A stretch of 64,000 nucleotides of DNA from Eledone cirrhosa (lineage: Eukaryota), in the NCBI GenBank assembly GCA_964016885.1, contig OZ024741.1:82212001-82276000 (forward strand), in the 5' to 3' direction. Each line of letters begins with the position of its first letter. Position 1 is the stretch's first letter. The notes beneath the pieces were generated by a model, which saw only the letters and a list, made by a program, of their open reading frames with translations, did no database searches and was not told where the DNA came from. Positions 6,114-63,235 of the stretch are shown piece by piece. The position numbers and the translations under genes are program-made.

Positions 6114-6317
6114 TAGGAAAATGTTTAGCACCGACGGCAGAGCTCAAGCCGTTTCGACGGCTATTTCTCGACTGAAATAGAGCAGAAATAGCCGTCGAAA
6201 CGGCTTGAGCTCTGCCGTCGTGGTTAAACATTTTCCTATTACCCAATCAACTACCCTAATATTGAGTACTCTGGTGCGTTATGGTCCATCTGGTTCCTTA
6301 CCACGCTTCCTTCGTTA
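6114..6317 (+). mobile_element. PLE-derived mini hairpin element with tail, between (TA)n tracts
   Basis: 6114-6238 is a near-perfect palindrome, followed by a 79-bp tail. Right arm plus tail is homologous to the PLE 3' end at 25735-25866. Confidence 0.9.
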
Positions 6318-6899
6318 TATATATATGTATATATATATATCACTTAAAAAACATGGGAGACATATAGAAAAAGTAAAGCGAGAAAGAGGCAAACATATGG
6401 ACAATTTCCACTCAAAGCCTATCTTTCTGGGGATCATTATAGTTTCGGATACTTTGTAAGATAGGATTATTCACCACCAGTGGATCAACAGAAAGCACAG
6501 AGTTATCCATAGATATCTATTCGAGAGGAAAACACAACGGACATTGAACGATGAAAAACACAAAACAAAACAAAACAAGAAGTAATATATACTGGTATCG
6601 CACAGTAAAATTGCTACAATCGAAAGCAACACGAATAAGGACTAGTTAACGATAGTATAAATGGAGGAATGGATTAACTTAATACAAGTTAGTTCAAACA
6701 ATAGCCCTAGAACTAATATTAATATAAGAGAGACATGGCGAAGATGAATGACCATGTCTGCAATCAAATCGCAAAAGACTGCGACAAAGGCGTGACAGAG
6801 TAGGGCAGCAGTAAAGTGTGATAGAAGAAATCGTCTACACACATTGCACCTGAATTCTTGGCGGGTTTTCCTTTTGCAGGCACTGCATTTGGATCCCAT

Positions 6900-8200
6900 T
6901 TACGGAGTGAATAATTCAAAGTGGCATGTTACACTCACTTTTTCTCATCAATACTTCATGATCATAACCCATGATGTGAGGAATTCAGTCAAACCCTCCC
7001 AATTCTCTATATCAATCTTCAGAGTTTTTAGAGTGTATCTTATGACATCCCTAAACCGCTTCTTTGCTTTATGTTGTGGCATTTTACCTCTGGTCAGCTT
7101 CTCCTAAAATAACTGTTCAGGAAGCCTTCCATCTTCCATCCTGACAACATGACCAGCCCAACACATTTGGTTACTAATAATCCTCTTCTCAATATTAGTG
7201 CTGCTCGCATTCTCAAGTAAAGCAGCATCAGGTGTGTAAAAATATCACTTGATGCTCAGGATCAGTCGGATACAATGCTGAAGAAATATTTCCAGATACT
7301 TCATATGATGCCTGTACGTTGTAGGCGTTTCACATCTGCATAACAGGGTTGTAGAGACACAGGCCTCATACATATACTCCGATTTGACCAGATTTCCTTC
7401 TTTGGTTTCCAGAAAGCAAGATTCACTTTCTCAATCTTGTGAATTATTTCAGCATCGAGCGTACCATCTCTACTAAGTGTATTTCCGAGATACATAAAGC
7501 TGTCACCACTACAAGTCTTTTTCTTCTCACGAAAATGTCTGGTTCCACATTCACTTCCCCAACTTGTACATAGCCCTTTTCTTTTTTATGCTAATATTTA
7601 GCCCAAATACAGTGCATGTATTTGAGGTGTCTAATATCAATTGTATGTCTTCTGTTGAGTGAGCCACATATCTCCGTGACAAGAATGACATATGTTTTGA
7701 ACTTGATGTGAAAATGTCTTGGATTAAAATCTTTGGCAGAGGTTCTAAATCACAAGTATACACCCATTTCGAAGCTTTGGAAGGCGTGTCAGCAGTACCA
7801 TCAGGTAGATGGCGAAAAGAGTGGGTGCAGATATGTCACCCTACTTCACATCGTTTTCCGTTGACATTGGCTTTGAAAGTGTCCCATTTAAGTTCACTTT
7901 TCCCTTTTTATTTTTATTTGAATATTCCAACAAATTCAGGCAGGCATCAAATGTTCTCCATTATGACTCACACTGTATTAAAAGTTACAGTATCGAAGGT
8001 TTTAGTAAGGTCCACAAATGCTTGGTATAGTGGCACTCGCTGTTCAACACACTTCTCCATAAGCTAGTGTGCTGAGAAAATCATGTCCATAGTAACTCGC
8101 CTAGTTCTGAATCGACATTGGGTCTCATGGAGGACTGCAGTGCAGATGCATTTTGTTGGACGATTCAGCAGGAAAACTTATAAGACTTTCCCTACCAATT
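6900..8200 (-). mobile_element. Degenerate RTE-clade LINE reverse transcriptase relic
   Basis: Minus-strand peptides YLGNTLSRDGTLDAEI..I.K...AF and FGLNISIKK; nearby QCRFRTRRVTMDMIFSA and F.DLTK.FDTV-like remnants; many stops. Confidence 0.75.
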
Positions 8201-8219
8201 TGTGCAGACTTATACAAAG

Positions 8220-59914: not shown

Positions 59915-62030
59915 CACCCACCAACCCACTATTAGATGCATTTGAGCAGGACCTTATGAACTTAATCCTTAAAATTAAATTCAAAGGACGTAACACCAAC
60001 AACAAATTACAGAAAGATATTAAAAAACTACTGGACGACCTTAAAAACACCAAAGGAATTGTAGTAAAAGCGGACAAAACATCAAACCTGTATACTATGG
60101 ATTGAACTACATACAACAACTTCATTCGAAAAGAATTACATAAAAAATATAGAAAAACGAATGAAGTAACTCTTAAGCACATCAATGATGAGGCATGCGA
60201 AATAGTGAAACATTTCGGAATCGAAGATAGGAGAGGACCACTCTTACCGGCGGTACCCACCTTCAATCTTAAGGACCATAAGGTAAACTTTGATAATGAC
60301 CCTAAAATTAGATTAATCTGCCCCTCTAAATCAGATATAGGTAAAATAAGCAAATATATCTTAGATAGAATCATCCCCCAAATTAAGGCTAAGGTTAACA
60401 TTAAACTCTGGGGGAAGACCCAAGAAGCAATAAGATGGTTTAATAGCATTAGCAATAAGAATAAATCTAAGTTTATACAGTTTGATATCGACGAATATTA
60501 CTCATCGATATCACCTGAAACTTTGAATAGAGCCATTAAGTTTGCTAAGGATAAGTCTGACCTTACAAACGATGAAATTAAGATTATATTAGAAGCTAGG
60601 AAAACTATAGTCAAATTTGAGAACAGTTATTGGGTACGTAAAGATAGACCCTCTAACTTTGACATAACAATGGGCTCTAACGATTCGGCGGAAATAACTG
60701 ATATTGTGGAGTTATTTATCGCCTTTAGACTCCATGAAAAATTCAGCAATCTCCACGGCGGAATATACCGCGACGATGTTCTCCTCCTAGTTAAAAACCT
60801 AAATAACCAAAAACTAGAAAAACTACGCAAAGATATAAGAAAACTACTACTTGAAATAGGACTAACTATAACATATGAATACAACCTTAAAGTAATTAAC
60901 TTCCTGGATGTCACACTCAATTTAAACTCTGGTCTGATTAAACCGTTTCATAAATTGAATGAAAATCTCAAATACGTAAATGTTGGGTCTAACCACCCCA
61001 TCTCTATAATTAAATCTATCCCTAAAAATATTTCCCTTAGAATCTCGGGTCTATCTTCTAACATACAAGTATTTAAGGAACACGCCGAGTACTACGATAA
61101 CGCCCTTAGTAAAGCAGGCTACCTCAACAAAATAGAGTATATAGATGAGAACAATCAAAATACCCAAAATAAATCCCACATAGGTAGATATAATAACACA
61201 ACACCAAACCACACTTACTACCATAGTATACACACCAGTAAACCAACAAACACAACTAATAGAAAGCGATGCAAAGAGTACTTATGGTATAACCCCGAAT
61301 ACAATAGTTCCATTAGTACAAATTTACCAGTACTCTTCTTAAAAATAATTAAGAGACATTTTCCTACATCACACAAATACCACAAAATCCTAAACCCTAC
61401 CACTATAAGACTGTCATACTCTACAGCGTTAAACCTTGAACAACACATAAAAAAGATCAATACTAGAAGGCTAAACGAAAACACTAAAAACTTAAGTACA
61501 AAGAACACAAAAAAGAACAGTAGACAATACACTACAGAACATAAATAAACCACACCTAAGTTCGTCCGCAATACTACTCCAGAGAAAACCCAACGTACAC
61601 AACTGTAACTGCACCTATCCTGACAACTGCCCCCTCGGCAATAACTGCCTGGAAAAAAATATTATTTATAAGTGTACCATTAAATCCGGAGGCAACGAGT
61701 GGTATTACGTGGCATCAACGGCAACATCGTTTAAATCTCGATTATATAGGCATTCTTACTCAATAAAACACCAGAGCCAAAGTACTGTAACAACTTTAGC
61801 AGAAAAAGCTTGGACGCTCAGGGATAGCGATCAAAAGTTTACCCTAAAATGGGAGAAATTAGCTAAAACCCAAAGCTTTTCCAGGAGCCAAAATTTCTGT
61901 AACTTGTGTAATCTTGAGATTTATTACATAATCACACACAAGAGGAAATTGCTGAATAACAGAATTGAACGAACATTATTCTGCCGTCACCGAACTAAAA
62001 CCCTTTTTTCCCACTACTAGCTGAATATTA
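59915..62030 (+). pseudogene. PLE RT / GIY-YIG ORF with a few stops and frameshifts
   Basis: ADKTSNLY, RLICPSKSDIG, QFDIDEYYSSI, MGSNDSAEITD, IYRDD, INFLDV, CNCTYPDNCPLGNNC, IIYKC, FKSRLYRH, CNLCNLE. Confidence 0.92.
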
Positions 62031-62922
62031 CATAAAAGAGGGACATCCCTCTAACTATATAAACCTCAATCTAGTTAGAAAAATATAAAAACAATCTCTT
62101 CTCAACATATATATGTATATTAATAACCTTAAATTACCACACTAATAATGGAAAGATATGCTGATGTGAATAGGTGCAAATATGCGATAATGAATGTGTC
62201 TAAAAGCGACCATAAGTATGTGTATATATGTGAAAATGTATATAAATAAGTAAATATATATATATGTTTGATGTGTATAGTTAGATGTAAGTGTACTCAT
62301 GTGTTAAAATGCTTATATATATATATATATATATATATATATATATATATATATATATATATATATATATATATATATATATATATATATATATATATAC
62401 ACATAGACTTGAGTATGTATGTATATATGTGTGTGTCTATACGTGTGTATATAAAGATAAGTTGAGTATGAAAATGTATACACATGAACGCGTATATATG
62501 TACATGTATATATGTGTGTATATATATATGTATGCATGTGTATATGTATCTAAGTATGAGCATGTAAGTATGTGAATGTGAGTATATATATTTTGTAGAG
62601 GTGTGCATATATGTTTGTGTGTGAATGCGTGGGCGAAAGGATACGTACACTTGAAAGAAAAATTTAAGTCTGAATGTTAATTAAGTGCAAACATAAAACC
62701 AACCACGCATATCTATACTATCTCTAATCCTTCTATAGATTTAGAAAAATAACCAATAATATATTCTATAAAAATGTCAAAACAACAGATGGGAATCTAA
62801 TTACTCACTGCCACCAACAATTCTCACTGCTAGCAAAAAACCACTCCCTCAACTATTCTTCTAACAACTTCACCCCTCCCTCCTAATATTCTCTATAAAA
62901 ACCAAACAGGTCCTCAGTAAAA

Positions 62923-63043
62923 TTATTCCGATGAAATGACAGTTGATAATAACATTGAAATATTGAATGTCTGCATAACTAATAATTTGTAGATAGCAGC
63001 TATTTTCAGGTTATGTAACTGTTATAGAAACACGTGTCAATAA
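62923..63043 (+). ncRNA. Hammerhead-like motif with CCGAUGA core, extended stem II and palindromic loop III
   Basis: TTATT-CCGATGA-aATGACAGTT...(~70 nt)...AACTGTTAT-a-GAA-AC-ACGT-GT-C-AATAA; predicted cut after 63038; the mirror copy at about 58435-58556 has GAAT. Confidence 0.7.
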
Positions 63044-63235
63044 ATTCCTTTCAACTAAACTGTATCCATTCAAATCTTTCTATTTTTCTCCGGATTACTT
63101 TTGGAACTACAACTGGAACCGTCGAGCAAACTCTACGTGAGCTGTCCATCTACTGTGTGTAATATTTATATTACAACACTACGGAAAATACTATATATAT
63201 ATATATATATATATATATATATATGTATGTATATA

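Follow-up and report, generated by a model that had tools for sequence, protein, structure and literature searches.

The window discussed here is a 64,000-nt stretch of Eledone cirrhosa DNA (assembly GCA_964016885.1, contig OZ024741.1, positions 82,212,001 to 82,276,000), and the subject is a set of Penelope-like elements (PLEs) inserted in its (TA)n tracts as two head-to-head arms, one with a tail and one without. Self-alignment and direct reading bear out the layout given by the original prediction, which had been made from the letters alone: at all 10 sites it named, a microsatellite is followed by an inverted arm, a body, the same arm with a one-sided tail, and a microsatellite. The sizes given as ~160 bp to ~4.9 kb were measured as 160-4887 bp, while the unpaired tails, put at 40-110 bp, measure ~33-109 nt. 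The layout holds at every site; the count of ten insertions does not, since 35428-35700 and 35663-35935 are letter-for-letter identical, so that 35466/35701 is one duplicated event and nine events remain. Arm identity over these sites is 84-99%.

Six families, A to F, are distinguished. Family A (Hydra-like) is represented by a mini-insertion, or mini, in (TA)n at 6113-6317 (+), with an inverted tail-less arm at 6113-~6172 and a tail-bearing arm at 6183-6317 (site 6114, arm identity 86.6%), and by a 5'-truncated long copy at 22501-25866 (+), in which the inverted arm is absent and the 3' end is the tail end, T. The open reading frame (ORF) of the latter lies in frame 22423-24570 (+) and encodes a YRDD reverse transcriptase (RT) and a C-terminal endonuclease (EN) with a CxCX5C linker; the 79-nt tail (25788-25866, +) is bounded by an internal end, I (25787), and by T (25866). 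Two identical family A minis at 35466-35899 (-), namely 35466-35664 and 35701-35899 (84.0%), represent the single event with tandem duplication, and a further insertion at 37201-37703 (-) has its tail at 37201-37279 and a 424-bp palindrome with a hammerhead-like element on both arms (99.1%). Family F is a mini at 27676-27835 (-), with the tail at 27676-27753, the palindrome at 27754-27835 (92.7%) and a canonical CUGAUGA core. The long family B insertion (29082-33968, -) has its tail at 29082-~29135 and arms at 29140-30051 and 33068-33968 (site 29083, 95.7% over 916 bp); it encodes a YVDD RT, a CX4CxxC-linked EN and an N-rich insert. A B-related insertion at 34037-34940 (-) has its tail at 34037-34080 and arms at 34083-34344 and 34699-34940 (87.8%). 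Family E (36611-37077, -; tail 36611-36706, palindrome 36707-37077, 94.9%) has no linked ORF in hand. The long family C insertion (54359-58364, -) has its tail at 54359-54391 and arms at 54399-55062 and 57713-58364 (93.4%), and encodes a Neptune-like protein with a YLDD RT and a GIY-YIG domain with CX4CxxC and CCHH. The long family D insertion (58396-63191, +), Hydra-like and with YRDD, has arms at 58396-59899 and 61661-63082 (89.8% over 1504 bp) and its tail at 63084-63191. For A, B, C and D, each of which has an ORF in the window, the tail lies at the 3' end of the coding strand.

Several observations in the window touch these copies. A (TA)n tract lies within the 3' untranslated region (UTR) of family D in both arms (59079-59245 and 62314-62399), and internal tracts of this kind serve as targets for later insertions, by which the arms are split. 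At 37138-37174 and 17200-17275, isolated tail-less ends adjoin (TA)n, the first of family E and the second of family A. A long Asn/His-rich simple-sequence insert lies within the family B ORF (31918-32646, -); it resembles the N-rich inserts of Adineta Penelope elements described in the part of PMC3846280 available to us.

The three RT types of the original prediction, YRDD (ORFs 22423 and 60106), YVDD (30291) and YLDD (56534), are read in the translations. The families were called unrelated, but A and D are related (40% of amino acids); the RTs of B and C, and of A and C, share about 24%, and family F is 45-59% identical to family A at the amino acid level, with a Hydra-like RT adjoining the family F pseudo-long terminal repeat (pLTR) downstream in loci L361 and L226. 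Family C gives Pfam matches to RVT_1 (6e-11) and GIY-YIG (8e-7); family B gives a weak RVT_1 match, and its EN resembles that of family C. The Pfam scan of the family A and D proteins gave no match; their RTs are similar to that of family C (E 1e-4 to 1e-5), and their Atlas neighbours at 0.97 carry GIY-YIG. Judged by their translations, families A to D are endonuclease-bearing (EN+) PLEs, combining a PLE-type RT with a C-terminal GIY-YIG endonuclease. The A and D translations (ORFs 22423, 60106 and 61496) have the DKT motif, the CxCX5C linker, CxxC and CxH, and lack CCHH, and the target is (TA)n; family A also has the RW-basic motif, with RWK replaced by RWR. These are the motifs by which the available part of PMC8557442 delimits the Hydra clade, to which A, D and F would then belong, F through its similarity to A only. 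Families B and C have a CX2-5CxxC linker ahead of GIY-YIG, and CCHH is readable in C; these features would suit the Neptune/Nematis clades, a tentative placement by motifs. Family E has the same two-end architecture at further loci (L220, L276).

Both ends of these elements are discrete throughout the genome. Exact motifs, the counts of which are lower bounds, occur 37,410 times for A, 12,523 for B, 2,930 for D, 1,578 for C and 30,315 for F. A DNA search of the genome with the family A end, which skips common words, returned nothing. Thirty loci per family were fetched and the ends were read from the portion listed; in these loci nearly every arm ends at base I or at base T and passes straight into (TA)n, as expected from the proposed fixed internal site and tail end, and both ends close with TA-like letters. 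The family A arms number 20,173 of type T and 20,083 of type I genome-wide. Pairing was counted in the 199 listed family A matches, which extend up to C1:29.3 Mb: 128 of them form 64 outward-facing pairs, and 71 are unpaired at exact match. T faces I in 62 of the 64 divergent pairs (p 2e-16 against independent choice); the other two are one T+T pair, a tandem that ends in I further on, and one I+I pair with members 6.8 kb apart. The two arms agree in their subfamily variant in 57 of the 62 T+I pairs, where shuffles give a mean of 22 and a maximum of 36. Among the first 100 matches listed per family, outward-pointing adjacent matches number 31 in A, 19 in B, 31 in D and 21 in C, against ~1 or fewer expected per class.

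Inversion had been called the rule. A hand count covered the first 40, 40, 20 and 20 of the 69, 69, 81 and 79 listed units of families A, D, B and C, respectively; clear T+I inversion was found in 36/41 units of A, ~20/39 of D, 8/20 of B and 6/~19 of C. The statement thus suits family A only; in B, C and D inversion is visible in 30-50% of copies, and these rates are lower bounds, many single arms stopping at a (TA)n tract, in some cases one within the element, at which later insertions land. Separately, five loci (L164, L219, L228, L275, L290) contain inverted segments starting at arbitrary internal sites rather than at I, and these are like L1-type 5' inversions.

The tail-less arm is not regularly the short one, contrary to the original prediction: by arm extents entered by hand from the fetched loci, the I arm exceeds the T arm by >50 nt in 7 of 20 family D pairs and in 12 of 23 long family A pairs. 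In six loci (L152, L171, L184, L247, L261, L286) the T arm consists of the tail only; with no overlap between the two, the I arm cannot have been copied from the T arm, and such non-overlapping arms argue against a simple fold-back of the cDNA. Of 64 junctions, six gave no value, five of them with coordinates from flipped loci, and 58 were scored using the furthest end backed by two copies, which may slightly inflate the overlap. Thirty-eight are flush, with a mean microhomology of 2.8 nt, and 30 of these 38 have microhomology of at least 2 nt, compared with 16% at random junctions. Discrete ends, a T:I ratio of 1:1, the T+I constitution of 62/64 pairs and junction microhomology all support the proposal that each insertion results from two priming events, one at the tail end and the other at a fixed internal site.

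The meeting point of the arms was expected to be freely variable, and here the data disagree, because the minis of families A and F stop at a fixed wall. Minis of ~200 bp make up 56 of the 62 family A T+I pairs. Their arms stop at -39 to -66 from I, or are shorter, and none of 82 family A mini arms ends between -67 and -75. An upstream motif, at -121 to -100, has 3,524 matches, about a tenth of the 37,410 for the motif at -40 to -17. In 1,998 matches the agreement with the template breaks off immediately before A(-64), window position 25723, and in 227 before C(-65); of 30 wall loci fetched, 21 end at A(-64), eight are long copies with a substitution and one passes to ~-72. The wall A lies within TCATTT, 25 nt downstream of TATTTAAA, the family A TATA-like box (25698, +), and this A at 25723, where the mini arms stop, is the probable transcription start. 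In family F, a hand count of the 20 listed outward pairs lying within 8 kb gives 17 minis, with spacers of 15-51 nt; two arms that both extend to the A 30 nt below a conserved TATAAATA would leave a spacer of 42. A TCAGTT that lies 30 nt downstream of a TATA-like run is the end point of two family C arms, an observation made post hoc. We consider it likely that the wall is the 5' end of the RNA, reached by run-off of the cDNA. A promoter scan, bacterial in type, was uninformative.

The two arms of an insertion are also coupled in length. In 35 anchored family A pairs, 30 have both arms short, four have both long and one is mixed (Fisher p 1e-4); 54 of the first 100 upstream-motif matches fall into 27 both-long pairs (hand count), and none of 20 fetched unpaired upstream-motif matches has a partner ending at the wall. 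The junction spacers of family A minis are distinct in 36 of 41 cases, which means that minis are made anew.

Two side observations concern the same families. In four family A loci (L235, L252, L192, L293) the T arms extend only to about -18 to -33, close to where the hammerhead is predicted to cut (-20/-19), and may be copies of cleaved 3' RNA. Six places at C1:0.3-2.9 Mb (L341, L346-L348, L354, L362) have near-identical flanks around one family F fragment, which suggests a larger segmental or satellite repeat.

Partial tandems occur in families A (L270/L271, L303), D (L153), C (L122/L129/L150) and F (L361). Where units stand in tandem, the tail leads on into the 5' UTR and the ORF start of the next unit, so T is also internal to the RNA; the pLTR arises from the partial tandem, as in EN+ PLEs. 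The family A pLTR contains a hammerhead-like fold (25680-25771, +) with the core (C/U)UGANAA...GAAAC...GUC and a predicted cut after 25767. Its minimum free energy structure is a three-way junction with a z of only 0.42, and cleavage activity is putative; the N7 column varies while the neighbouring columns are fixed. The Rfam scan gave no hammerhead match, only sub-threshold microsatellite and hairpin noise. Just 3' of I and of T, twin hairpins are predicted in family A, each of 4+4 bp interrupted by a 2-nt bulge and beginning 5-6 nt past the respective end, with z of -1.45 and -2.69; they did not fold at the matching places tried in families D and F.

We believe, with a probability of about 0.72, that these insertions are EN+ PLEs in (TA)n with a tail-bearing and a tail-less arm head to head and arise by coupled twin priming on a single RNA. 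The protein of the element, probably dimeric, would bind the pLTR part of the RNA and nick both strands of the (TA)n target. Reverse transcription would start from one nick at T and from the other nick at I, with 2-5 nt of TA complementarity aiding either start; the two cDNAs would extend toward the RNA 5' end and stop independently, and their 3' ends would anneal and join via inverted microhomology of 2-4 nt. Priming on the downstream pLTR would yield long, variable arms. Priming on the upstream pLTR, or on a short pLTR transcript, would let both cDNAs run off the RNA 5' end and produce the ~200-bp minis. The two fixed ends, one of each per insertion, the matching variants, the fact that either arm can be longer, the microhomology, the coupled lengths and the wall in A and F speak for twin priming.

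This mechanism is proposed from genomic copies and DNA reads, and several points weigh against it. About 10 of 40 long family A units and 18 of 39 family D units have no adjacent or visible partner arm. Of the 58 scored junctions, 20 hold 1-37 unassigned bases, partly due to divergent references (the value for L251 is spurious). As to the wall, one mini (L316) runs past it, its base borders the apical loop of a predicted hairpin, a cap-G excess was looked for there and none was found (G in 9 of 100 listed), only two arms in family C end at the Inr-like (initiator-like) site, and a wall was looked for in families B and D and not found. A fold-back palindrome with an asymmetric central deletion would yield the same form of junction and the same microhomology, and the concordance of the arms could partly reflect gene conversion or one active subfamily at a time. 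In addition, Frangieh et al. saw no bulk strand difference in the start site.

Among other explanations, the one that survives best, although we regard it as unlikely, is that a single cDNA, started at the tail end, folds back on itself, is copied as far as site I and is there cut and joined, later asymmetric central deletions making the arms unequal. Long palindromes are unstable, and deletions at the centre would likewise leave microhomology; the fold-back also accounts for the identical variants on both arms and for perfect palindromes (37201; L297, L299). It is hard to reconcile with L247 and L261, which are 98-100% identical to the reference and yet have tail-only T arms with I arms of up to 1.5 kb; L184 and L171 (~94% identity) likewise have tail-only T arms. 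Moreover, the I end carries the same TA-matching signature as the T end, and at the most frequent wall junction there is no space in which a loop could form. The proposal is in the spirit of the self-priming considered in PMC3846280, but site I corresponds to an in vitro RT start site of another PLE in the accessible part of PMC11167929.

Somewhat more doubtful is twin priming by two protein-RNA complexes on separate RNAs, with the T/I asymmetry set by target geometry. It would spare two RTs from copying the same stretch of RNA, and cis-preference could give matching variants; however, the coupled arm lengths and the variant match in 57/62 pairs are explained more simply by one RNA. We find it very improbable that the minis constitute a non-autonomous family whose finished units are themselves copied, similar to miniature inverted-repeat transposable elements (MITEs), short interspersed nuclear elements (SINEs) or retrozymes, with arms homogenised at the DNA level. 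Such a family would fit the very high number of copies, their nearly constant size and their hammerhead-like content, but the diversity of the 41 junction spacers largely refutes it, several subfamilies each produce minis, and long coding copies have this pair of ends as well.

The raw reads bear on a last alternative. Three runs of restriction-site-associated DNA sequencing (RAD-seq) under the same species label and one contig set were compared with window positions 25500-25866, the family A 3' region. Among the RAD-seq joints listed, 13 of 14 are to the opposite strand; loose (TA)n ends occur at 25787, and 487-572 molecules per run end at 25723. A larger step in read ends at 25734 was discarded as end evidence, being an AATT restriction site. 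The family C ends are seen in raw reads at 54361 and 54392; these reads gave no joints, at a depth too low for the wall. Fold-back chimeras occur in some libraries, and the identical 35466/35701 could be a duplicated read-out, but the 1-16% divergence of the arms, end points fixed over tens of thousands of loci and the agreement of independent Illumina runs in joints and ends leave an assembly or library artefact next to no probability.

Coupled twin priming may be stated in a stricter form, which we offer tentatively and at somewhat less than even odds: that PLE insertion is obligatorily paired, a dimer on the two look-alike hairpins 3' of I and T priming both strands on one RNA, and that action at the 5' pLTR gives run-off at the transcription start. 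If so, the minis, tens of thousands in number, would record both the RNA 5' end and the integration intermediate of a paired reaction in at least two PLE clades. The predicted mass production of palindromes in (TA)n is supported: this route scatters tens of thousands of short palindromes through such tracts, and annotation tools may take them for MITEs or microRNA hairpins.

Of the remaining features of the window, a cytochrome P450 exon lies at 45777-46163 (-) (Pfam p450, E 2.7e-9), and the repeats may lie in introns of the P450 gene. Two decayed Hydra-like PLEs at 19190-20860 (-) and 38300-40600 (+), 40-50% identical to family A in amino acids, have no inverted arm in the self-alignment. A further repeat family ending in (TA)n is found at 2631-3313, 21299-21982 and 22079-22501; directly upstream of the 22501 element there are local duplications in tandem. 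An imperfect palindrome at 63237-63413, centred on (TA)n, is tail-less and unlike the PLE structures, and has no specific relatives among the fetched loci. Non-LTR retrotransposons with RT occupy 12075-14226, 14484-17357, 46527-51873 and 40920-44574; one has APE and an ORF1-like frame, one has zf-RVT, and one has two ORFs on the minus strand. A dispersed short repeat, SINE-like in size, lies at 17371-17540, 18195-18361, 44816-44872 and 53727-53856.

In L1 twin priming, too, each of two target nicks starts a cDNA and microhomology joins the two products, but the second site is placed at random and there is no overlap between the segments. The insertions described here have two fixed sites and, in most cases, overlapping arms. 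As regards PLEs, neither the layout nor the existence of two start sites is new, the former having been published in PMC3846280 and PMC8557442 and the latter in PMC11167929, all cited here for the parts available to us. An inverted copy and a one-sided tail in microsatellites are typical of EN+ PLEs, and Pen2a_Av (PMC3846280) and the elements in Fig. 2 of PMC8557442 likewise have a head-to-head inverted 5'-truncated copy with the tail on one end only. The same two sources agree with our data in the partial tandems, the (TA)n bias, the TATA and Inr of the pLTR and the N-rich ORF insert (family B); the published tails are 30-40 nt, whereas here they are up to 79-109 nt. Families A and D, compared by motifs, agree with the Hydra clade of PMC8557442 in DKT, CxCX5C, CxxC/CxH, the lack of CCHH and the (TA)n target. 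Within those parts, the two accounts invoke self-priming or EN resolution, do not give T+I pairing counts, coupling of arm lengths or a run-off wall, and in PMC8557442 the origin of the inverted and tandem structures is called undefined. As far as their available text goes, bioRxiv 10.64898/2026.07.22.740005 and PMC13282606 add nothing on the inverted-tail layout. We found no paper that states paired twin priming or run-off minis for PLEs, in a search of literature outside subscription journals and supplements. The closest biochemical counterpart is PAc, Poseidon of Anolis carolinensis, in vitro (PMC11167929): it belongs to another clade, and per-insertion T+I pairing and inverted products are not reported in the part consulted; it is alike in two internal RT start sites bounding the tail, in cutting and extending both strands, in an AT-rich target and in a predicted dimer. 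The architecture is real and known, and the counts lend quantitative support to a testable mechanism. Strict T+I pairing, the same template, the possibility of either arm being longer and the run-off wall speak more for paired twin priming than for self-priming, and these counts yield sharp predictions for the existing in vitro PLE system.

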